IMG/VR virus record: IMGVR_UViG_2698536518_000005
From: a virus
Taxonomy: Duplodnaviria > Heunggongvirae > Uroviricota > Caudoviricetes
Length of the DNA stretch: 21,231 nt
Strand: one strand, 5' to 3'
Shown: positions 1 to 21,231 of the stretch, in pieces
Layout of the letters: each line of letters opens with the position of its first letter
Position numbering within the stretch: the first letter of the stretch is position 1
The notes under the pieces: generated by a model
What the model saw: only the letters and a program-made list of their open reading frames with translations
Database searches by the model: none
Told to the model about the DNA's origin: nothing
Made by a program: the position numbers and the translations under genes

Positions 1-461
1 AATCGCAACGGAGTGCGTATGAGCACCAATACCGACAGTATGTGCATGTGCGCCTGCGCTTGCAGCAGTGCCGGACAGCGAGTGGGTATGAGCACCATCT
101 GATGATGTCTTCCCTGCATTACGAGTCTGGCCACTACCGCTTGTTGTGCTCATAATCCCCGCGCTTAGATTTGAAATCGCGGTATAACCATTAGGGAAAA
201 TGCTCGTGTTCGTGCCACCAAATGCACCGGAACTCTTGTGTTGGTGCGCACCGGCACTATTTGCGGTCCCGCTAATACTATGGGTATGCGCCCCGGTGTT
301 ATTCGTGGATTTGGTTCCGTAATCAAACGACGATGTGGTTTTCGTCCCCAAATCCGTACTGGATGCGCTGGCGCTGTGGGTGTGCGATTTAATGCCGTCC
401 TGTTCCTGAGATAATACGGCCCGACCACTGGCGGGCTTGCCCTTAATCGTCCAGCCACGCA

Positions 462-462
<1 letters not shown>
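1..462 (-). CDS. stf: Side tail fibre protein (Stf-like), internal/C-terminal portion; frame runs off the window start
   Basis: Minus-strand frame is open from 462 to 1 and reads MRGWTIKGKPASGRAVLSQEQDGIKSHTHS...GAHTHSLSGTAASAGAHAHTVGIGAHTHSVAI, matching the internal region of lambda Stf as I recall it, with its HxH repeats. ATG at 460-462. Absent from the ORF track because it has no in-window stop. Confidence 0.7.
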
Positions 463-2686
<2,224 letters not shown>

Positions 2687-2706
<20 letters not shown>

Positions 2707-3020
2707 TCTCCCGCATATTGCCAGCATGGCTTTTAATGAGCCGCTGATGCTTGAACCCGCCTATGCGCGGGTTTTCTTTTGTGCGCTTGCAGGCCAGCTT
2801 GGGATCAGCCGCCTGACGGATGCGGTGTCCGGCGACAGCCTGACTGCCCAGGAGGCACTCGCGACGCTGGCATTATCCGGTGATGATGACGGACCACGAC
2901 AGGCCCGCAGTTATCAGGTCATGAACGGCATCGCCGTGCTGCCGGTGTCCGGCACGCTGGTCAGCCGGACGCGGGCGCTGCAGCCGTACTCGGGGATGAC
3001 CGGTTACAACGGCATTAGAC
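2687..3020 (+). pseudogene. C: Capsid assembly protease gpC, N-terminal ~110 codons only
   Basis: GTG at 2687 preceded by GAGGAGGAG. Translation VTAELRNLPHIASMAFNEPLMLEPAYARVFF...SGMTGYNGI matches the lambda gpC N-terminus, then diverges at ~3017 and hits a stop. Confidence 0.85.
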
Positions 3021-4499
3021 GGATGCCCCTTTAATGGGGATCACCCGGAACAGCCCATGTTTTTTCGAGCGTTCATACACAATGGTCGGGTCAATCCCGC
3101 CAGTATCCCAGCAGATACGGGATACCGACATTTCTGCACCATTCCGGCGGGTATAGGTTTTATTGATGGCCTCATCCACACGCAGCAGCGTCTGTTCATC
3201 GTCGTGGCGACCCATAATAATCTGCCGGTCAATCAGCCAGCTTTCCTCACCCGGCCCCCATCCCCATACGCGCATTTCGTAGCGGTCCAGCTGGGAGTCG
3301 ATACCGGCGGTCAGGTAAGCCACACGGTCAGGAACGGGCGCTGAATAATGCTCTTTCCGCTCCGCCATCACCTCAGCATCCGGACGTTCGCCGATTTTCG
3401 CTTCCCATGTCTCACCGAGCGTGGTGTTCACGAAGGTTTTACGTTTTCCCGTATCCCCTTTCGTCTTCATCCAGTCTTTGACAATCTGCACCCAGGTGGT
3501 GAACGGGCTGTACGCCGTCCAGATGTGAAAGGTCACACTGTCCGGCGGCTCAATCTCTTCACCGGATGACGAAAACCAGAGAATGCCATCACGGGTCCAG
3601 ATCCCGGTCTTTTCGCAGATATAACGGGCATCAGTAAAGTCCAGCTCCTGCTGGCGGATGACGCAGGCATTATGCTCGCAGAGATAAAACACGCTGGAGG
3701 GGTCATCCGGCGTCCATTTGAGGCCAAACGGCGTCTCTTTGTCGCCAAATTTAAGATACTGCTCCTCCCCGCAGTGCGGGCAGGCAACATGAAAACGCAT
3801 AAAATGCAGGGATTCACTGGCTGCACGCTCAATCTGGCAGGTGCCTCTCACTTTGGGCGTGGAGCCACGGATGGACTTTGGCCAGACCGAGCCTTCAATA
3901 CGTTTGTCGCCAAGGAACGTCGGAGAGCCTTCCTGTTCAATATCCTCATCAAAGGCAGCAAGTTCATCATAACCCGCCACATCCACCGACTTTTCACGGT
4001 AGTTTTTTGCCGCTTTACCGCCCAGGCACCAGAAGCCACGACCATTGGAAAAACGCTTCATAGTGAGCGTGTTATCCCGGTGCTTTTTGCCATACCACGG
4101 AGCCAGCGCCAGCAGCGACGGAATATCGCGGATGGTCGGCTCAACGTGGGTTTTCATAAAGTTCTCGGCATCACCATCCGTCGGCAACCAGATAAGGGTG
4201 TTGCGCTGCTTATGCTCTATAAAGTAGGCATAAACACCCAGCAGCATTTTGGAATAACCGACACGGGCAGACTTCACCACATTCACCTCACGGATGTAGT
4301 CGCTGCCCATCGCATTCATGATGGCCCGCTGAAAGGGCAGTGTTTCCCAGCGCCCTTCCTGGTATGCGGATTCTTTCGGGAGATAGTAATTAGCATCCGC
4401 CCATTCAACGGCGGTCTGTGGCTCCGGCCTGAACAGTGAGCGAAGCCCGGCGCGGACAAAATGCCGCAGCCTGTTAACCTGACTGTTCGATATATTCAC
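3015..4499 (-). pseudogene. A: Terminase large subunit gpA, N-terminal 494 residues, ended by a stop created at a rearrangement junction
   Basis: Translation MNISNSQVNRLRHFVRAGLRSLFRPE...RVIPIKGASV matches lambda gpA residues 1-494. Lambda continues YGKPV, which is found instead at 462 on the plus strand. Confidence 0.9.
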
Positions 4500-5019
4500 T
4501 CAGCAACCCCGGTATCAGTTCATCCAGCGCGGCTGCTTTGTTCATGGCTTTGATGATATCCCGTTTCAGGAAATCAACATGTCGGTTTTCCAGTTCCGGA
4601 AAACGCCGCTGCACCGACAGGGGGATCCCGTCGAGAATACTGGCAATTTCACCTGCGATCCGCGACAGCACGAAAGTACAGAATGCGGTTTCCACCACTT
4701 CAGCGGAGTCTCTGGCATTTTTCAGCTCCTGTGCGTCGGCCTGCGCACGCGTAAGTCGATGGCGTTCGTACTCAATAGTCCCTGGCTGGAGATCTGTCTC
4801 GCTGGCCTGCCGCAGTTCTTCAACTTCCCGGCGCAGCTTTTCGTTCTCAATTTCAGCATCCCTTTCGGCATACCATCTTATAACGGCGGCAGAGTCATAA
4901 AGCACCTCATTACCCTTGCCACCGCCTCGCAGAACGGGCATTCCCTGTTCCTGCCAGTTCTGAATGGTACGGATACTCGCACCGAAAATGTCAGCCAGCT
5001 GCTTTTTGTTGACTTCCAT
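4474..5019 (-). CDS. nu1: Terminase small subunit Nu1 (181 aa)
   Basis: Translation MEVNKKQLADIFGASIRTIQNWQEQGMPVLRGGGKGNEVLYD... matches lambda Nu1. Its stop overlaps the A start, as in lambda. Confidence 0.93.
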   Translation of the reverse strand: MEVNKKQLADIFGASIRTIQNWQEQGMPVLRGGGKGNEVLYDSAAVIRWYAERDAEIENEKLRREVEELRQASETDLQPGTIEYERHRLTRAQADAQELKNARDSAEVVETAFCTFVLSRIAGEIASILDGIPLSVQRRFPELENRHVDFLKRDIIKAMNKAAALDELIPGLLSEYIEQSG

Positions 5020-5029
5020 TGTTCATTCC

Positions 5030-7320: not shown

Positions 7321-7682
7321 AATTATTACCTTTTGAAGAAATTAGCCCTTGGGCAGAATGGTCCGAAAAAAAATATCAGAGAGAAAAACCAACAAGGAAA
7401 TCTCAAGAGGTACAAATAATAAAATTATAACAATGACTGCTTCAGATAAATTTGTAACAAACCAGAACACCATTAACGCATGATTAACCACCCATAGCAA
7501 GGATTACTTTTGTAAAGAAAAACACAGCAATGAAAGAATAGCTTTATTTATTAATAAAACGTGTCATTCTGATTAAGACCTTTTATCTTACCCTTAAGAT
7601 TTCAGGAATTTTGGCTCATGGAAGAGTCCTTTTTATTTAAATTTTACATTCCGCGATGTAAATGTTCCGATTTAATATTACC

Positions 7683-8706
<1,024 letters not shown>

Positions 8707-11141: not shown

Positions 11142-11858
11142 TTATCTCGTCACCTTCCTCAATTGCGCTTCCGCGTATGCTTCTTCCTGCCAGCACTTTG
11201 TTACCAGTTTACCAATGACGTCCGCATACCCCTTATACCACTGATAATCGGTCAGGTCTGGTACCAGCTTCTGGACATGACGTCGTGCCAGCGTGGTCGG
11301 TAAACGACTAAACCGGTTTCCATTACAACGCCCACAAATCTTATATACCGGTACGCCATGAAACCGGGTTCTTTTTTCATCCAGAACAATCCCTTTACCC
11401 TTACACCCTCTGCACGCTGTGCTGGCTTCGCCCTTACCATGGCAATGCTGACATAGTTCCTTCACCCATTCTTCCTTGATTACAGATTCCCCGCGTCTGT
11501 AGTGTTTCACCACTTCGCGCAATACATTATAAAATCCCGTACCTGAACAATGCTCACAGCGAGCCTTACTTGCCGCAGACCTGGAGTAATCAGCAAAGGC
11601 AAAACTCACGAGGTAAGGAATAATCTGTAACCGGATTTCTTCACTCAATTTGTTCAATGTCGGGTTATCCAGTGCCATCGCGTAATTTAGCAGGCCTTCA
11701 ATCGCAAACTGAGGGTCCTGAACACCAACTTTTGCCAGAAATAAGGCCAACCCAAGTGGTGCTTTCGACTGCACCATCCCCTGCGCTGCCATTTCAACGC
11801 ACACAGCATAGAGGCCATCTTCACAAAAAATTTTACGCAGTTCTTCGATGTTCATCAT
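11142..11858 (-). CDS. quuQ: Late-gene antiterminator Q (238 aa) with four CxxC motifs
   Basis: CEHCSGTG / CQHCHGKG / CRGCKGKG / CGRCNG zinc motifs. Sits upstream of the lysis genes in the same orientation. Confidence 0.8.
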   Translation of the reverse strand: MMNIEELRKIFCEDGLYAVCVEMAAQGMVQSKAPLGLALFLAKVGVQDPQFAIEGLLNYAMALDNPTLNKLSEEIRLQIIPYLVSFAFADYSRSAASKARCEHCSGTGFYNVLREVVKHYRRGESVIKEEWVKELCQHCHGKGEASTACRGCKGKGIVLDEKRTRFHGVPVYKICGRCNGNRFSRLPTTLARRHVQKLVPDLTDYQWYKGYADVIGKLVTKCWQEEAYAEAQLRKVTR

Positions 11859-12074: not shown

Positions 12075-12230
12075 TTACTCCTCAGGTTCGTAAGCTGTGA
12101 AGACAGCGACCTCCGTCTGGCCGGTTCGGATTCGTACCTCGCAGAGGTCTTTCCTCGTTACCAGTGCCGTCACTATGACGGTTAAACAGATGACGATCAG
12201 GGCGATTAACATCGCCTTTTGCTGCTTCAT
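12075..12230 (-). CDS. hokD: Hok-family small toxin HokD/RelF (51 aa)
   Basis: Hand translation of the minus strand: MKQQKAMLIALIVICLTVIVTALVTRKDLCEVRIRTGQTEVAVFTAYEPEE. Too short for the ORF track. Confidence 0.9.
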   Translation of the reverse strand: MKQQKAMLIALIVICLTVIVTALVTRKDLCEVRIRTGQTEVAVFTAYEPEE

Positions 12231-12301
12231 AGCCTGCTTCTCCTGTCAACGCAAAGCAGAAGTGTCACCTTCGGTGCGAAACAGAGATGTCATGCTTTGG
12301 T

Positions 12302-12589
12302 TCAGAGAATGCGTTTGACCGCCTCGCTATATACTTCCGAGCGTTCTCTTTTCCCAACAGAAATCACGAAAACGACAACTTTCTCGTCTATAACCTGGTA
12401 TACAAGGCGATAGCCTGAAGACCGGAGCTTAATCTTGTAACAATCAGGCATACCACGGAGCTTGTTTGCTTCAATCCGGGGTGACTCAAGTACTTCAACC
12501 AGCTTCTTTTTCAACTGTTCACGTACCGTCGAGCCCAGCTTTCGCCATTCCTTTAGTGCCCGCTCGTCAAAATCCAGAAAATACGCCAT
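12302..12589 (-). CDS. relE: RelE mRNA-interferase toxin (95 aa)
   Basis: Translation MAYFLDFDERALKEWRKLGSTVREQLKKKLVEVLESPRIEANKLRGMPDCYKIKLRSSGYRLVYQVIDEKVVVFVISVGKRERSEVYSEAVKRIL. Confidence 0.95.
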   Translation of the reverse strand: MAYFLDFDERALKEWRKLGSTVREQLKKKLVEVLESPRIEANKLRGMPDCYKIKLRSSGYRLVYQVIDEKVVVFVISVGKRERSEVYSEAVKRIL

Positions 12590-12828
12590 CAGAGTTCATC
12601 CAGCGTCACACGTACTGGCTTAGGATTACGAAGCCGTTCTTTCACTATCTCCACAAGTTCAGCATCTTCATCACTCAGGAGTGTCTGTTTGAACGGCAAG
12701 CGTTCATTGTCAGCGATATACTCGAGCATGAGACGAAGCGCTTCAGAAGGAGTTACACCCATTTTTTCAAGCGCGGCGTAAGAACGCGCTTTAAGTTCAT
12801 CGTCAATACGCAGGTTAATGCTACCCAT
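12589..12828 (-). CDS. relB: RelB antitoxin (79 aa)
   Basis: Translation MGSINLRIDDELKARSYAALEKMGVTPSEALRLMLEYIADNERLPFKQTLLSDEDAELVEIVKERLRNPKPVRVTLDEL. ATGA overlap with relE. Confidence 0.95.
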   Translation of the reverse strand: MGSINLRIDDELKARSYAALEKMGVTPSEALRLMLEYIADNERLPFKQTLLSDEDAELVEIVKERLRNPKPVRVTLDEL

Positions 12829-14129: not shown

Positions 14130-14807
14130 TCAATCTTTTTTATCGGGATCAGGCTTCTTTTTAGGTAACTTCGGGGGCTTAACTTGCTGATGACTTTGCG
14201 TTCGGCGCGTAAGCCAGGGATGGTCAGCTTTAGGTTTAACATAGTATTTTGAGCGTAAATCAATACGGGCATTATCCACTCGTTCATGGACACTCTTTTC
14301 ATCATCCAGTGGTATAGGCTCCGGGCCATCAACATACTTTTCCCAGCCCAGCGCTTTCCCGTCATACAGAACGTTAATTTCACCGTCAAAGTTCTCGCAT
14401 ACAGTAACAACCGAATGCCTAAGTCGATATCCCCGGCCCTCACTGCGTACCTGAAACGCACTGCTTTTGTACTGGAAAGTGAGATTTTTAGACAGAACGC
14501 GCTTCGCCTGTAGGCTGAAGATATAACCCAGTTCCTCTTCAGAATGGTGCACATCAAGATGAGCATTATCAGTAGTACGAGGCGACGTAGCGAACCGGTT
14601 GTTATAGGCTTCAATAAAGGTCGGCAACCATGCATTTGCTGTTTCAATATCACTGATATTCTGAAGCCGCATTTCTTTGACCAGCCTGTCCTGTAGTGTC
14701 TGATTGGCGCGCTCTACCCGCCCTTTTGCCTGCGGGCTGTTGGCATGGATTGGCTCGATGCCCAGTGTCTTTATCGCACGAGTGAACTGGGTCAGCTCAC
14801 CTTCCAG
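14130..14807 (-). pseudogene. C-terminal fragment (~225 codons) of a DDE/rve-type transposase or integrase core; N-terminal part missing
   Basis: Minus-strand frame reads ...FTRAIKTLGIEPIHANSPQAKGRVERANQTLQDRLVKEMRLQNISDIETANAWLPTFIEAYNNRFA..., the signature region around the third catalytic E of rve domains. The frame opens right at the dicC junction with no upstream D-D region or start codon. Confidence 0.65.
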
Positions 14808-14893
14808 CTATAAAGCGAAGCCAAACGAATACCTGCTGCTTGTGCAAGTTTTGTTTTTGAACCGAAATACAAAAGAGCGTCAGTTTTAAGCAT
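14792..14893 (-). pseudogene. dicC: dicC (Cro-like regulator) truncated after codon 31
   Basis: Hand translation MLKTDALLYFGSKTKLAQAAGIRLASLYSWK matches the DicC N-terminus, then runs VS-stop where the transposase-derived sequence begins. Divergent from dicA. Confidence 0.75.
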
Positions 14894-14908
14894 TTAAAAC
14901 ACCTTTAT

Positions 14909-14974
14909 TGTTAGTCATAACTAACAAGATAGATGTTAACAAAAACATAGTCAATACGATTTAGCATTAGCTAA
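14909..14974. promoter_or_regulatory. dicA-dicC intergenic operator region with two TTAG-N6-CTAA inverted repeats
   Basis: TGTTAGTCATAACTAACA at 14909-14926 and TTAGCATTAGCTAA at 14961-14974. The same motif recurs upstream of ydfA. Confidence 0.6.
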
Positions 14975-14976
14975 CT

Positions 14977-15384
14977 ATGGAAACAAAAAATTTAACTATC
15001 GGCGAACGCATCAGGTATCGTCGGAAAAACCTCAAACACACCCAAAGGTCTCTTGCTAAAGCCCTGAAAATCTCCCATGTGTCTGTATCACAATGGGAAC
15101 GGGGTGATAGTGAACCTACAGGGAAGAACCTTTTTGCCCTCAGCAAAGTATTGCAATGCTCACCAACATGGATTCTATTTGGCGATGAAGACAAGCAACC
15201 AACACCACCTGTTGAGAAGCCAGTTGCCTTATCCCCCAAAGAACTAGAGCTCCTTGAGCTGTTTAATGCACTGCCAGAATCAGAACAGGATACCCAGCTC
15301 GCCGAAATGCGAGCTCGAGTAAAAAACTTCAATAAACTCTTTGAAGAATTACTAAAAGCCCGTCAGCGGACAAATAAAAGATAA
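14977..15384 (+). CDS. dicA: DicA, HTH (XRE-family) repressor of the dicB operon (135 aa)
   Basis: Translation METKNLTIGERIRYRRKNLKHTQRSLAKALKISHVSVSQWERGDSEPTGKNLFALSKVLQCSPTWILFGDED... Confidence 0.95.
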   Translation: METKNLTIGERIRYRRKNLKHTQRSLAKALKISHVSVSQWERGDSEPTGKNLFALSKVLQCSPTWILFGDEDKQPTPPVEKPVALSPKELELLELFNALPESEQDTQLAEMRARVKNFNKLFEELLKARQRTNKR

Positions 15385-16651: not shown

Positions 16652-16840
16652 ATGAAAACGTTATTACCAAACGTTAATACGTCTGAAGGTTGTTTTGAAA
16701 TTGGTGTCACTATCAGTAACCCAGTATTTACTGAAGATGCCATTAACAAGAGAAAACAAGAACGGGAGCTATTAAATAAAATATGCATTGTTTCAATGCT
16801 GGCTCGTTTACGTCTGATGCCAAAAGGATGTGCACAATGA
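16652..16840 (+). CDS. dicB: Cell-division inhibitor DicB (62 aa)
   Basis: MKTLLPNVNTSEGCFEIGVTISNPVFTEDAINKRKQERELLNKICIVSMLARLRLMPKGCAQ. GAGGA RBS. Confidence 0.9.
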   Translation: MKTLLPNVNTSEGCFEIGVTISNPVFTEDAINKRKQERELLNKICIVSMLARLRLMPKGCAQ

Positions 16841-17028
16841 ATTCAGCATTTGTGCTTGTTCTGACAGTTTTTCTTGTTTCCGGAGAGCCAGTTGATATTG
16901 CAGTCAGTGTTCACAGGACAATGCAGGAGTGTATGACTGCAGCAACCGAACAGAAAATTCCCGGTAACTGTTACCCGGTCGATAAAGTTATTCACCAGGA
17001 TAATATCGAAATCCCGGCAGGTCTTTAA
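16837..17028 (+). CDS. ydfD: YdfD (63 aa), small membrane lysis protein
   Basis: MNSAFVLVLTVFLVSGEPVDIAVSVHRTMQECMTAATEQKIPGNCYPVDKVIHQDNIEIPAGL. ATGA overlap with the dicB stop. Confidence 0.85.
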   Translation: MNSAFVLVLTVFLVSGEPVDIAVSVHRTMQECMTAATEQKIPGNCYPVDKVIHQDNIEIPAGL

Positions 17029-17120
17029 AACAGTTCCGTAATAAATATCCGGTTTCATTCTTATATGCCAGCAATGGCAGGGATTTGTTCATCCTTAAAT
17101 CTGTCATGAGGTTAAAACAA

Positions 17121-19592
17121 ATGAGTAAAGTCTTTATTTGCGCCGCTATTCCTGACGAACTGGCAACAAGGGAAGAAGGCGCTGTGGCTGTAGCCACAGC
17201 CATTGAAGCTGGCGACGAACGCCGTGCTCGAGCAAAATTTCACTGGCAATTCCTGGAACATTATCCGGCTGCTCAGGACTGCGCTTATAAATTTATTGTC
17301 TGCGAGGATAAACCTGGCATACCCCGCCCTGCCCTCGATTCATGGGATGCTGAATATATGCAGGAAAACCGCTGGGATGAGGAGTCTGCTTCTTTTGTCC
17401 CGGTTGAGACTGAATCCGATCCGATGAACGTCACTTTTGACAAGCTGGCCCCTGAAGTACAGAACGCTGTCATGGTTAAGTTCGACACATGTGAAAACAT
17501 CACCGTTGATATGGTTATTAGCGCACAGGAATTGTTGCAGGAAGACATGGCAACATTCGACGGACATATCGTTGAAGCGTTGATGAAAATGCCAGAAGTT
17601 AACGCCATGTATCCGGAGCTTAAGTTGCACGCCATTGGGTGGGTTAAGCATAAATGTATTCCTGGTGCTAAATGGCCCGAAATTCAGGCAGAGATGCGCA
17701 TCTGGAAAAAACGTCGCGAAGGTGAACGCAAGGAAACCGGAAAATACACGTCTGTTGTTGATCTCGCCCGCGCCAGAGCCAATCAACAGTACACTGAAAA
17801 TTCAACAGGAAAAATCAGCCCGGTCATTGCTGCCATTCATCGCGAATACAAGCAGACATGGAAAACACTGGATGACGAACTGGCCTACGCTCTCTGGCCT
17901 AGTGATGTGGATGCCGGAAACATTGACGGCAGCATCCATCGCTGGGCAAAAAAAGAAGTTATCGACAACGACCGCGAAGACTGGAAGCGTATCTCGGCAT
18001 CAATGCGCAAACAGCCTGATGCCCTTCGCTACGACCGCCAAACTATTTTTGGCCTTGTCCGTGAGCGTCCGATCGACATTCACAAAGATCCCGTAGCACT
18101 GAACAAATATATCTGCGAATACCTGACGACAAAGGGCGTGTTTGAGAATGAAGAAACAGACCTGGGCACTGTTGATGTTCTCCAGTCATCAGAAACACAA
18201 ACTGATGCAGTGGAAACTGAGGTATCTGATATCCCAAAAAATGAAACCGCGCCGGAAGCTGAACCATCTGTAGAGCGTGAGGGGCCGTTCTATTTCCTCT
18301 TCGCAGATAAGGACGGAGAAAAATACGGTCGCGCAAACAAACTCTCTGGTCTGGATAAGGCACTGGCTGCTGGCGCCACTGAAATCACAAAAGAAGAATA
18401 TTTTGCCCGAAAAAATGGCACATACACGGGCTTACCGCAAAATGTAGATACCGCTGAAGATTCAGAACAACCAGAGCCGATAAAAGTTACCGCTGACGAA
18501 GTAAACAAAATTATGCAGGCAGCCAATATCAGCCAGCCTGACGCCGATAAGTTGCTTGCTGCATCACGTGGTGAATTTGTTGAAGGGATTAGTGACCCGA
18601 ATGATCCGAAATGGGTTAAGGGGCTCCAGACCCGCGATTCTGTGAACCAGAACCAGCATGAATCGGAACGGAACTACCAAAAAGCGGAACAAAACAGTCC
18701 AAATGCGTTACAAAACGAGCCAGAAACGAAACAGCCTGAACCAGTAGCGCAACAGGAAGTGGAAAAAGTCTGCACCGCCTGCGGTCAGACCGGCGGCGGC
18801 AACTGCCCTGATTGTGGCGCGGTGATGGGCGACGCAACATACCAAGAAACATTCGATGAAGAGTATCAGGTTGAAGTTCAGGAAGATGATCCGGAGGAAA
18901 TGGAAGGCGCTGAACATCCACACAAGGAGAACACTGGCGGCAATCAGCATCACAATAGCGATAATGAAACTGGCGAGACGGCAGATCACCCAATTAAGGT
19001 GAACGGTCATCACGAAATCACATCCACCAGCAGGACGTGTGACCATCTAATGATCGACCTTGAAACCATGGGAAAAAATCCTGATGCCCCGATCATCTCA
19101 ATAGGTGCAATATTTTTCGATCCGCAAACCGGAGATATGGGACCGGAATTTAGTAAGACTATCGATCTGGAAACTGCTGGCGGAGTCATTGATCGGGACA
19201 CCATTAAATGGTGGCTTAAGCAATCACGCGAAGCGCAATCTGCCATTATGACCGATGAAATCCCGTTAGATGATGCACTGTTACAATTGCGAGAATTTAT
19301 CGACGAAAACTCCGGTGAATTTTTTGTTCAGGTTTGGGGAAATGGAGCCAACTTCGACAACACGATTTTGCGCCGTTCATACGAACGGCAGGGGATCCCC
19401 TGCCCGTGGCGTTACTACAACGATCGCGATGTACGCACAATCGTTGAGCTGGGGAAAGCCATAGACTTCGATGCCAGAACGGCTATTCCATTCGAAGGTG
19501 AGCGCCATAATGCACTTGATGACGCCCGTTACCAGGCAAAATACGTTTCAGTTATCTGGCAAAAACTGATCCCGAGTCAGGCTGATTCTTAA
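17121..19592 (+). CDS. Large prophage exonuclease (~823 aa): YdfE-like N-terminal domain, acidic linker with a CxxC-x8-CxxC zinc ribbon, and a C-terminal DEDDh 3'-5' exonuclease domain
   Basis: ATG at 17121 with GAGG RBS. N-terminus MSKVFICAAIPDELATREEGAVAVATAIE... The C-terminal domain has exo motifs MIDLET, GNGANFD and H-x4-D (HNALDDA). Zinc ribbon CTACGQTGGGNCPDCG. Confidence 0.8.
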   Translation: MSKVFICAAIPDELATREEGAVAVATAIEAGDERRARAKFHWQFLEHYPAAQDCAYKFIVCEDKPGIPRPALDSWDAEYMQENRWDEESASFVPVETESDPMNVTFDKLAPEVQNAVMVKFDTCENITVDMVISAQELLQEDMATFDGHIVEALMKMPEVNAMYPELKLHAIGWVKHKCIPGAKWPEIQAEMRIWKKRREGERKETGKYTSVVDLARARANQQYTENSTGKISPVIAAIHREYKQTWKTLDDELAYALWPSDVDAGNIDGSIHRWAKKEVIDNDREDWKRISASMRKQPDALRYDRQTIFGLVRERPIDIHKDPVALNKYICEYLTTKGVFENEETDLGTVDVLQSSETQTDAVETEVSDIPKNETAPEAEPSVEREGPFYFLFADKDGEKYGRANKLSGLDKALAAGATEITKEEYFARKNGTYTGLPQNVDTAEDSEQPEPIKVTADEVNKIMQAANISQPDADKLLAASRGEFVEGISDPNDPKWVKGLQTRDSVNQNQHESERNYQKAEQNSPNALQNEPETKQPEPVAQQEVEKVCTACGQTGGGNCPDCGAVMGDATYQETFDEEYQVEVQEDDPEEMEGAEHPHKENTGGNQHHNSDNETGETADHPIKVNGHHEITSTSRTCDHLMIDLETMGKNPDAPIISIGAIFFDPQTGDMGPEFSKTIDLETAGGVIDRDTIKWWLKQSREAQSAIMTDEIPLDDALLQLREFIDENSGEFFVQVWGNGANFDNTILRRSYERQGIPCPWRYYNDRDVRTIVELGKAIDFDARTAIPFEGERHNALDDARYQAKYVSVIWQKLIPSQADS

Positions 19593-19664: not shown

Positions 19665-19916
19665 ATGAGCGAAGTAATCATGATTGTCTCTCCCGGCAAA
19701 TGGGTATCCGAAGAGCAGTTAATTGCGCTGAAAGGAATAAAAAAAGGTACGTTAAAAAAGGCCCGGGAAAAATCGTTTATGGAAGGAAGGGAATATAAGC
19801 ATGTCGCTCATGACGGTATGCCATGGGATAACAGTCCATGCTTTTACAACCTGGAAGAAATTGATCGCTGGATTGAGCGCCAGGCATCAGCGAGACCAAG
19901 ACGTCATCTTACTTGA
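19665..19916 (+). CDS. Excisionase-like small protein (83 aa)
   Basis: Small basic ORF immediately upstream of the integrase. Similarity to Rac-type putative excisionases is recalled only loosely. Confidence 0.55.
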   Translation: MSEVIMIVSPGKWVSEEQLIALKGIKKGTLKKAREKSFMEGREYKHVAHDGMPWDNSPCFYNLEEIDRWIERQASARPRRHLT

Positions 19917-19950: not shown

Positions 19951-21231
19951 ATGAAATATCCGACAGGCGTGGAAAACCATGGAGGGAAATTACGTATCTG
20001 GTTTGTTTATAAAGACGTAAGAGTCAGGGAAAATCTGGGGGTTCCTGACACAGCAAAAAACAGGCGCGTTGCAGGTGAACTACGCTCCTCTGTTTGTTAC
20101 GCAATAAAAACTGGTGTTTTCGACTATGCAAAACAGTTTCCCTCCTCACGCAATCTGGAAAAATTTGGTGAGGCCCGACAAGATTTAACCATAAAAGAAC
20201 TGGCTGAAAAATTTCTGGCACTGAAAGAAACTGAAGTCGCCAAAACATCACTCAACACATACCGTGCCGTCATCAAAAATATCCTGAGCATAATCGGTGA
20301 AAAAAATCTTGCCTCATCGATTAATAAAGAAAAATTACTGGAGGTTCGTAAAGAGTTACTGACTGGATACCAGATCCCCAAAAGTAACTATATTGTTACA
20401 CAACCAGGGAGATCGGCTGTAACTGTAAATAATTACATGACAAATCTTAACGCCGTGTTCCAGTTTGGTGTTGATAACGGTTACCTGGCAGATAATCCGT
20501 TTAAGGGGATCTCGCCATTAAAGGAATCAAGAACCATTCCGGATCCTCTTTCGCGGGAAGAATTTATCCGTCTTATCGATGCGTGCAGAAATCAGCAAGC
20601 AAAAAATTTATGGTGTGTTTCTGTTTATACTGGAGTTCGCCCTGGTGAGCTGTGTGCACTTGGATGGGAGGACATAGATCTGAAAAATGGAACAATGATG
20701 ATCAGGAGAAATTTAGCAAAAGACCGTTTCACGGTACCAAAAACACAGGCGGGAACCAATCGGGTCATTCATCTTATTAAGCCAGCAATCGACGCTCTCC
20801 GGAGTCAGATGACATTAACGAGACTGAGCAAAGAGCATATCATTGATGTTCACCTCAGAGAGTATGGCAGAACAGAAAAACAAAAATGCACCTTTGTTTT
20901 TCAACCTGAAGTGTCAGCGAGAGTAAAAAATTATGGTGACCATTTTACCGTTGACTCAATAAGGCAGATGTGGGACGCAGCGATAAAACGTGCCGGACTC
21001 CGCCATCGAAAATCATATCAGTCGAGACATACTTATGCCTGCTGGTCGCTGACAGCTGGTGCTAACCCGGCATTTATAGCAAACCAGATGGGCCATGCAG
21101 ATGCGCAAATGGTATTTCAGGTATACGGAAAATGGATGTCTGAAAACAATAATGCACAGGTAGCTTTGTTAAATACACAGTTAAGCGAGTTTGCCCCAAC
21201 CATGCCCCATAACGAAGCAATGAAAAATTAA
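19951..21231 (+). CDS. intQ: Tyrosine site-specific integrase with DUF3596-type arm-binding N-terminus (426 aa from MKYPTG; alternative start at 19936)
   Basis: N-terminus MKYPTGVENHGGKLRIWFVYK... resembles Rac IntR-type integrases. C-terminal catalytic region carries the R...HxxR...Y signature (RHTYACW, VYGKW). Stop at 21229-21231. Confidence 0.88.
   Translation: MKYPTGVENHGGKLRIWFVYKDVRVRENLGVPDTAKNRRVAGELRSSVCYAIKTGVFDYAKQFPSSRNLEKFGEARQDLTIKELAEKFLALKETEVAKTSLNTYRAVIKNILSIIGEKNLASSINKEKLLEVRKELLTGYQIPKSNYIVTQPGRSAVTVNNYMTNLNAVFQFGVDNGYLADNPFKGISPLKESRTIPDPLSREEFIRLIDACRNQQAKNLWCVSVYTGVRPGELCALGWEDIDLKNGTMMIRRNLAKDRFTVPKTQAGTNRVIHLIKPAIDALRSQMTLTRLSKEHIIDVHLREYGRTEKQKCTFVFQPEVSARVKNYGDHFTVDSIRQMWDAAIKRAGLRHRKSYQSRHTYACWSLTAGANPAFIANQMGHADAQMVFQVYGKWMSENNNAQVALLNTQLSEFAPTMPHNEAMKN

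Follow-up and report, generated by a model that had tools for sequence, protein, structure and literature searches.

A full-length ydfE-type gene of a Qin-type prophage and its predicted product, a relative of RecE with an exchanged nuclease domain

The window analysed in this work, the whole 21,231-nucleotide stretch of IMG/VR record IMGVR_UViG_2698536518_000005, is a Qin-type cryptic lambdoid prophage of Escherichia coli, and the gene considered here (17121-19592, plus strand) is the full-length form of Qin ydfE. The annotated order is relBE, flxA, dicC/dicA, ydfABC, dicF, dicB, ydfD, exonuclease gene, xis, int; strain cq9 continues beyond int with the chromosomal genes rspB and rspA. A sequence-only reading of this DNA had singled out one large multidomain exonuclease gene, placed between the dicB operon and xis/int. 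Both statements hold. The open reading frame (ORF) runs uninterrupted for 823 codons, from the ATG at 17121 to the stop codon at 19590-19592, free of internal stops, with dicB and ydfD upstream and the excisionase and integrase genes downstream. The gene is already known: its product is RefSeq WP_000048342.1, annotated as "exonuclease" or "3'-5' exonuclease" in the 100% megablast matches, and it is represented in PHROGs, Pfam, phage records and thousands of E. coli annotations. What was not found stated in the accessible literature, and is an incremental insight, is that the protein combines a RecE-type scaffold with a swapped nuclease, and that the swap coincides with the loss of RecT.

The gene and the modules recognised in its product are given below, residues being those of the 823-residue protein. 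The scores are the predicted local distance difference test (pLDDT) values of a full-length AlphaFold2 (AF2) model, built from an alignment of 32 sequences (mean pLDDT 72.8).

17121-19592, plus strand: full-length ydfE-type exonuclease coding sequence (ORF, 100% megablast matches, RefSeq annotation, phrog_2082 matched end to end)
17108-17111, plus strand: GAGG, Shine-Dalgarno-like, 9 nt 5' of the ATG, read from the sequence
17121-17735, plus strand: YdfE_N region, residues 1-205 (pLDDT >90; PF27430 on an identical relative)
17853-18140, plus strand: helical YdfE_C module, residues 245-340, homologous to RecE residues ~278-360 (BLASTP; pLDDT ~96)
18273-18425, plus strand: small beta-beta-alpha-beta-alpha domain, residues 385-435 (pLDDT 87-96, disorder on either side)
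18540-18617, plus strand: conserved linear motif DADKLLAASRGEFVEGISDPNDPKWV, residues 474-499 (alignments; low pLDDT)
18771-18842, plus strand: zinc ribbon C551xxC554-x7-C562xxC565 followed by GAVMGDATY, residues 551-574 (regular expression, RecE alignment, pLDDT ~75)
19038-19589, plus strand: DEDDh (DnaQ-like, Pfam Rv2179c-like) domain, residues 640-823 (PF16473, Foldseek, alignment)

An alternative in-frame TTG at 17085 would make the protein 12 amino acids longer; the ATG is the start used in RefSeq, in phage records and in the annotation of K-12 ydfE.

The C-terminal DEDDh exonuclease domain proposed by the sequence-only reading is clearly recognisable. Residues 642-813 match PF16473 over positions 2-177 of the 177 in the profile (E = 2.4e-67, 226.5 bits against a cut-off of 27), and the three motifs lie at the expected places, DLE at 646-648 (Exo I), GNGANFD at 740-746 (Exo II) and HNALDD at 796-801 (Exo III, H-x4-D). 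Substitution of catalytic residues had been named as the finding that would speak against a nuclease; D646, E648, D746, H796 and D801 are all intact, none of them varying when the domain is aligned with T4 DexA and four standalone homologues, where H796 and D801 pair with H186 and D191 of DexA. The AF2 model of the domain has an RNase H-like fold. Its best Foldseek match is DexA (8kel, E = 2e-8), followed by RNase T, Orn/REXO2 and ERI1, with a probability of 1.00 for DexA, RNase T, Orn and REXO2, and a PDB sequence search found T4 DexA entries only (8KEL and 8KEN, E = 1.5e-6). DexA, or exonuclease A, is a 3'-5' DNA exonuclease (GenBank record, PMC12153337), and its structure was solved in the latter study. 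It shares the DEDDh pentad with the window protein and is its best structural match, but is a standalone protein of 227 amino acids from a virulent phage, has extra loops, shows 21-26% identity and lacks a RecE-type scaffold. By analogy with the family, the polarity of the window enzyme is predicted to be 3'-5', the opposite of that of RecE.

Residues 640-823 find their closest relatives in standalone enterobacterial proteins of ~185-190 amino acids, which are annotated as "3'-5' exonuclease" and 57-76% identical to the domain. Phage records matching the query number 748, mostly over the DEDDh domain alone. Standalone homologues 56-58% identical to the C-domain occur in epsilon34 (gp34) and Bas106 (Bas106_0031), where the gene, lying inside a P22-type Rec module, has Erf/SSB on one side and abc2, an anti-RecBCD gene, on the other; the DnaQ-type gene of epsilon34 is accepted as a very likely member of the Rec module (PMC12315714). 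Such standalone DnaQ-type exonucleases resemble the window gene in their location, the early-left operon of temperate phages, and are the closest in sequence to residues 640-823, at 56-76% identity across the full domain. They differ in having a single domain and Erf, SSB and Abc2 as neighbours, whereas in the window the domain is fused to a 640-residue RecE-type scaffold, and annealase, SSB and anti-RecBCD genes are missing. The founder of PF16473, Rv2179c of Mycobacterium tuberculosis, belongs to the same Pfam family, and the family profile is matched end to end, but Pfam describes it as a 3'-5' exoribonuclease, and it is encoded by a bacterial chromosome. Rv2179c is a more distant relative than DexA, since it is absent both from the matches of the PDB sequence search and from the top Foldseek matches.

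The rest of the protein points to RecE, the exonuclease VIII of the Rac prophage of K-12. In BLASTP comparisons residues 262-627 align with RecE 278-592 (E = 2e-61), and the last ~150 residues of the aligned stretch are near-identical, including the zinc ribbon and its flanks, over which CxACGQTGGxNCPDCGAVMGDATYQETFDEE is conserved. At the DNA level the similarity to recE extends over 443 bp at 78% identity. The NCBIfam equivalog model of RecE (NF007259) aligns residues 246-623 to model positions 271-600 of 877, scoring 281.6 bits against a cut-off of 1269. No significant BLASTP alignment to K-12 RecE extends past RecE residue 592, and the PD-(D/E)XK domain of RecE (~600-866) is not matched; nor was a Pfam match found to PF06630 (Exonuc_VIII), the N-terminal domain of RecE. 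The two proteins share the YdfE_C module, the motif LAASRGEFVxGISDPNDPKWV, a CxxC-x7-CxxC ribbon, a similar length, an acidic disordered middle and the location of the gene, an early-left (pL-type) operon upstream of xis/int. They differ at both ends, a PF06630 N-terminus and a 5'-3' PD-(D/E)XK nuclease in RecE, the YdfE_N type of N-terminus (260 residues) and a DEDDh nuclease in the window protein, and in what follows the gene, recT being located behind recE in Rac and absent from the window. Because residues 262-627 are homologous to RecE and a DEDDh domain occupies the nuclease position, the window protein is, as judged from sequence comparison, related to RecE but fitted with an exchanged nuclease domain. 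The sequence-only reading had correctly anticipated that the fold would differ from those of the 5'-3' nucleases of lambda and Rac, the DEDDh domain being found where RecE has its PD-(D/E)XK domain. In turn, the description of the middle of the protein as a low-complexity linker has to be amended: the region is acidic and disordered, but is homologous to RecE and contains conserved islands.

RecE and the window protein are members of a mosaic family. The scaffold (residues 1-640) was searched with HMMER (E <=1e-3) against 1.84 billion cluster representatives, and modules were mapped on the long family members with phmmer and Pfam. The search yielded 247 representatives, and so small a number denotes a narrow family. 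At the N-terminus members carry either YdfE_N or RecE-N (PF06630); the shared middle brings together YdfE_C, the mini-domain at 385-435, the motif LAASRGEFVxGISDPNDPKWV and, in some members, a zinc ribbon; at the C-terminus there is a DEDDh domain, a RecE-type PD-(D/E)XK domain, a DUF3799-type PD-(D/E)XK domain, or a domain with no Pfam family. The YdfE_C module (M1) is present in both YdfE-type and RecE-type proteins. Combinations are not fixed, as P0129, a protein of 805 amino acids, joins RecE-N (PF06630) and the zinc-ribbon module (M2) to a DEDDh domain.

A third class of scaffold proteins, ~700-790 amino acids long, was noticed among these sequences (P0127, P0130, P0135, P0136, P0155, P0169, P0188 and P0190; loci L009 and L010). 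Their C-terminal ~250-300 residues belong to no Pfam family, and in PHROGs match uninformative families only, phrog_26058 (unknown function) and phrog_2489/phrog_7838 ("exonuclease"). The gene of P0127 has xis/int directly behind it, and no annealase. This class may correspond to the "RecE-2 proteins lacking a nuclease domain" of PMC12315714.

In the AF2 model the folded units are residues 1-205, 245-340, 385-435, the zinc ribbon (~550-570) and the DEDDh domain (640-820), and pLDDT is <50 over residues 345-384, most of 439-547, and 572-637. The acidic linker perceived earlier in the sequence is borne out by the largely low pLDDT and by the net charge, which is -11 over residues 351-400 and -14 over residues 551-600. 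The YdfE_N region is made of an alpha/beta subdomain (~1-100) and a helical subdomain (~105-205). Residues 1-256 are 100% identical to K-12 YdfE, which places the protein in the YdfE family, and both YdfE_N (PF27430) and YdfE_C (PF27432) are precomputed on P0122, a protein 100% identical to the window protein over residues 1-350. Residues 1-205 have no informative fold or sequence match in PDB, in accord with the N-terminal domain of no assigned function described in the sequence-only reading. The 385-435 mini-domain (EREGPFYF...GRANK...EITKEEYFARKNGT) is confined to YdfE_N-type proteins, in which it is conserved. The 474-499 segment probably does not fold independently, to judge from the model; the LAASRGEFVxGISDPNDPKWV motif is common to RecE and to most of the aligned relatives with different C-terminal domains, and the segment is a candidate docking motif. 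The zinc ribbon had been reported as CxxC-x8-CxxC; the two CxxC pairs are there, but the spacer is of seven residues, not eight. Segment 551-574 is near-identical to RecE 518-541, and the ribbon is found in only a subset of relatives. A PDB sequence search with residues 380-640 returned no match. As a whole, the conserved islands of the acidic middle look like docking motifs strung along a disordered tether. A short G-x-G-x-F-S-[IV]-[DE]-G-L motif was also noticed in several members lacking the ribbon and in two having it (P0249 and P0269).

The ratio of nonsynonymous to synonymous substitution rates (dN/dS) was estimated from codon alignments of the window gene to its alleles in mEp460, Evi and Tritos, the values for single modules being those from mEp460 and Evi. 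The ratio is 0.06 in YdfE_N, 0.11 in YdfE_C, 0.02-0.04 in the mini-domain, 0.12-0.28 in the zinc ribbon and 0.15-0.20 in the DEDDh domain, and rises to 0.7-0.8 in two linkers that AF2 calls disordered. All folded modules are under purifying selection, and the units that AF2 predicts as folded are the constrained ones. Low ratios in the folded modules imply that the gene is not a decaying remnant, in spite of the degraded state of the prophage. The gene exhibits intragenic mosaicism, the DEDDh domain having a history different from that of the rest. Synonymous divergence (dS) from the Evi allele (L017) is 1.12 in the DEDDh domain (19038-19589) and ~0.25 in YdfE_N; from the mEp460 allele it is 0.065 in the DEDDh domain.

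The type of nuclease is mirrored by the gene that follows. RecT follows three of the four PD-(D/E)XK versions examined (K-12 RecE, P0132 and P0144); in the fourth, P0234, from a Rac-like prophage (locus L013), a protein of 271 amino acids encoded at 7565-8380 takes the position of RecT. By contrast, none of seven DEDDh loci (the window, PhiR42_1, vB_EcoS-813R8, P0129, P0123, mEp460 and Tritos) has an annealase, and DEDDh genes run directly into xis and/or int, or into other non-annealase genes. The P0129 locus is itself a Rac-like prophage. The nuclease domain seems to move as a unit with its partner gene, independently of the scaffold. The lack of a visible annealase partner, remarked from the sequence, is confirmed on a wider basis: neither annotation nor searching reveals an annealase in the window, the matching annotated regions lack one too, and none lies between the gene and xis/int. 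By gene content the locus does not encode a two-component recombinase, since there is no adjacent annealase and the catalytic domain is not PD-(D/E)XK.

The same arrangement is found in Tritos, a viable phage. TRITO_27 is 99.0% identical to the window protein, resides in the order cI, ydfABC, DicF, dicB, ydfD, exonuclease, xis, int, and is the only recombination-type gene of the early-left operon. In Table 1 of Zheng et al. 2025 (Genome Res, PMC12315714) the "Tritos" class is listed with a nuclease present, and single-strand annealing protein (SAP), SSB and anti-RecBCD absent; it includes four phages, all Chi-rich (PMC12315714). The window matches this prototype in the nuclease gene, in the flanking genes and in the lack of SAP, SSB and anti-RecBCD, but its copy is located in a cryptic, partly deleted Qin prophage. 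Two Chi sites (GCTGGTGG) occur in the window, both on the minus strand, at 19024-19031 and 8285-8292. The former falls at the junction between the scaffold and the DEDDh domain within the gene.

The surroundings of the gene, and the point at which the K-12 copy is interrupted, are the following.

16652-17028, plus strand: dicB and ydfD, directly upstream and in the same orientation as the exonuclease gene (annotation, Pfam)
17887/17888, no strand: K-12 IS2E-associated deletion breakpoint (K-12 Qin comparison)
19665-19916, plus strand: excisionase gene, directly downstream (DUF1233, E = 2e-31)
19951 (RefSeq) or 19936 (ORF list) to the window end at 21231, plus strand: integrase gene (annotation, ORF list)

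DicB is recognised by Pfam (E = 1e-39), and YdfD is a DUF1482 protein. In the 92-nt gap between ydfD and the exonuclease gene, promoter and terminator scans gave counts within the shuffle expectation, and none of the candidates was convincing; the exonuclease gene therefore probably shares the expression of the dicB operon when the latter is derepressed. In K-12 MG1655 ydfE (b1577) is a pseudogene. It agrees with the window ORF at 100% over its first 256 codons, after which comes IS2E, in keeping with the fragmented state ascribed earlier to the K-12 gene. K-12 Qin and the window are 99.9% identical up to 17887, and the match resumes at 20072, which means that codons 257-823, xis and the 5' end of int are missing in K-12. 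Elsewhere the gene is common. Some match to it was found in 4800 of 5426 complete E. coli genomes, and at least 80% of the gene is covered in 3537 of the 5426 (~65%), the matching places per genome being 2 as a median and 10 at most. Phage copies are found in PhiR42_1 (100% identity), HannyBb (99.8%), Tritos (99.0%), mEp460_ev081 (88.9%), PPompW/Stx2a phage records (84.9%) and Evi (84.5%), and the gene order of the window is kept in Tritos and mEp460.

What such a protein might do can be framed from these data. The role that we favour, giving it an even chance, is that of a scaffold-tethered 3'-5' DNA exonuclease, which trims DNA ends for phage recombination dependent on the RecBCD/RecA functions of the host. 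According to this model, the early-left promoter would drive the gene as part of the dicB operon once repression by DicA is lifted. The scaffold (residues 1-640), composed of two folded N-terminal domains, a small domain, a docking-type motif and a zinc ribbon set on acidic disordered linkers, would direct the nuclease to its site of action, a DNA end or a partner from the host, as presumed for the N-terminal region of RecE, which is dispensable for nuclease function but enhances linear-linear recombination (PMC11611040). The DEDDh domain, of the T4 DexA / Rv2179c type, would take nucleotides off DNA 3' ends; removal of 3' tails or flaps would make the ends usable by host RecBCD/RecA, supporting phage recombination and the formation of concatemers. 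The protein would not be a self-contained exonuclease-plus-annealase recombinase. The absence of annealase and anti-RecBCD genes, along with the reported Chi richness of the phage class, is what suggests a processing of ends that feeds the RecBCD/RecA pathway of the host.

Several points weigh against the trimming role and the associations on which it is built. A 3'-5' exonuclease would destroy the 3' tails used by annealases and RecA, and 3'-5' DnaQ-type nucleases usually inhibit recombination (PMC12315714). DnaQ-type genes located near int, outside a contiguous Rec module, are not counted as Rec-module genes in the same survey (PMC12315714). PF16473 is named for an exoribonuclease, and RNA may be the substrate; a standalone DexA homologue of E. 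coli, EcD, acts as an anti-T4 defence nuclease (PMC12153337). The count of Chi sites in the window is not significant, as 9 of 100 shuffles reach two, and the prophage is cryptic and partly deleted. The association with RecT rests on a handful of loci, a small but consistent sample. The neighbour of P0234 has no Pfam or PDB match, falls in phrog_3657 (unknown function) and is assignable to no annealase family; it could be an annealase of an unrecognised type. No experimental or functional study of the YdfE protein was found in the searchable literature (queries ydfE, Rv2179c with phage, and PF16473).

Four other explanations share part of the remaining probability, the rest being assigned to roles outside this list. 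The protein might be a superinfection-exclusion or defence nuclease, in which the DEDDh domain degrades foreign DNA, for example the 5-hydroxymethylcytosine (5hmC) DNA of T-even phages, as EcD ("HREX") does, and the scaffold senses or targets the invader. T4 DexA is indeed the closest solved relative of the domain, by sequence and by fold; EcD cuts 5hmC-containing T4 DNA, spares unmodified double-stranded DNA and protects cells (Kang et al., NAR 2025, PMC12153337); DEDDh defence nucleases often carry auxiliary domains (PMC13344964); and the neighbouring prophage gene dicB is reported to be protective against phage. We regard this explanation as unlikely all the same, as the gene resides in a repressed early-left operon, not in a position expressed in the lysogen, and in free-living phages no other recombination-type gene accompanies it in that operon. 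The 5hmC-specific variants described retain the equivalents of DexA W152 and D169 and have lost the tetramer residue D90 (PMC12153337), a signature that the window protein does not appear to match: W152 corresponds to Y766, D169 to A780, and D90 is kept as D718, in an alignment that is 26% identical and gappy near D169. The supplementary primers show that EcD starts with MIDTET, a beginning shared by none of the 120 proteins closest to the C-domain. With PADLOC, a CRISPR-associated DEDDh model gave the sole match, a weak one (E = 2e-5). Identity of the window protein with EcD itself (HAK9828821.1) was considered as a separate matter, and rejected on the different N-terminus and on the lack of a match in those 120 relatives, EcD being retained as a model for the rival mechanism.

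An RNA-directed exonuclease, which would trim 3' ends in the processing or turnover of phage or host RNA, or act in defence against RNA phages as ISG20/TONDO, seems improbable. The name of PF16473 comes from the Rv2179c 3'-5' exoribonuclease, RNase T, oligoribonuclease and ERI1 are among the structural neighbours of the DEDDh model, the small RNA DicF is encoded in the same operon, and bacterial DEDDh enzymes with auxiliary domains, some of them prophage-encoded, block MS2 and Qbeta (bioRxiv 2026, PMC13344964). DexA, the closest characterised relative, acts however on DNA, the closest sequence relatives sit among the DNA recombination genes Erf, SSB and Abc2, and the scaffold is common to a DNA enzyme, RecE; TONDO sequences are set apart from the other DEDDh domains associated with defence (PMC13344964), and no link between them and the YdfE family was found. 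We give the same low credit to the hypothesis that the protein is the exonuclease half of a split recombinase, the annealase being provided in trans by another lambdoid prophage, or by an unrecognised partner. The number of gene copies per genome implies that several lambdoid prophages often coexist, RecE shares the scaffold, and the standalone homologues co-occur with Erf; but the predicted 3'-5' polarity would leave no 3' tails for the loading of an annealase, none of the DEDDh loci examined has one nearby, and viable phages such as Tritos carry the gene with no annealase annotated or listed. Finally, the gene could be a decaying remnant of a cryptic prophage, with an ORF that has stayed open by chance or a nuclease that no longer works. 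The terminase, Q antiterminator and rem pseudogenes of a 100%-matching strain, and the broken copy of K-12, fit with decay. This explanation, already disfavoured, is hardly tenable given the five intact catalytic residues, the dN/dS values of 0.02-0.2 across the folded modules against the mEp460, Evi and Tritos alleles, and the wide spread of identical or near-identical copies.

A more general and rather doubtful hypothesis, which goes beyond the end-trimming role, is that the ~600-residue non-catalytic region common to RecE and YdfE is an adaptor through which interchangeable effectors reach a single shared target, be it a host protein or a DNA end. The effectors, in this equally tentative extension, would be the 5'-3' PD-(D/E)XK nuclease, the 3'-5' DEDDh nuclease and the third C-terminal domain with no family. 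If so, the DEDDh version would represent a one-gene strategy of recombination or end processing via host RecBCD/RecA, which dispenses with an annealase, and docking would fall to the motif LAASRGEFVxGISDPNDPKWV and to the zinc ribbon. The hypothesis would also explain why linear-linear recombination is boosted by full-length RecE, and not by the nuclease domain alone.

The scaffold is of interest in its own right. Full-length RecE is the working part of linear-linear "direct cloning" recombineering, and its N-terminal ~600 residues lack an assigned function. A scaffold that is kept under purifying selection while the nuclease has been swapped and RecT lost suggests a function independent of nuclease chemistry, and the docking-type motif and zinc ribbon are concrete elements for mutation. 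The Tritos type is a common class of E. coli temperate phages, and K-12 lacks an intact copy of the gene. As the gene is found in about two thirds of the complete E. coli genomes and is not intact in K-12, work carried out in K-12 may miss its effects. In natural strains the activity could have a bearing on mosaicism, on recombination of prophages and on DNA transactions between phage and host.

The remainder of the prophage bears the marks of its cryptic state. Strain N61 has a 100% match to the window, and its genes for the terminase large subunit, a terminase gpA fragment, an S49 peptidase, the Q antiterminator and rem are annotated as truncated pseudogenes, and the portal gene (1105-2706) and nohA are intact; degraded stretches cover 1-5020 and 11142-11858 of the window. 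The alignment of the window to N61 consists of two pieces, spanning 25,580 bp against 21,231. N61, cq9 and the phage-type relatives have ~4.3 kb of extra DNA between ydfW and dicA (window ~14300-14980), comprising an ISNCY transposase fragment, a methyltransferase gene, a DUF977 gene, a replication-protein-like gene and a YdaT-family gene, and the window follows K-12 from 15000 on. The GC content is 55-60% in the late region and 35-49% elsewhere. The hokD type I toxin gene and the relBE type II toxin-antitoxin genes, known features of Qin, reside at 12075-12828 as in K-12.

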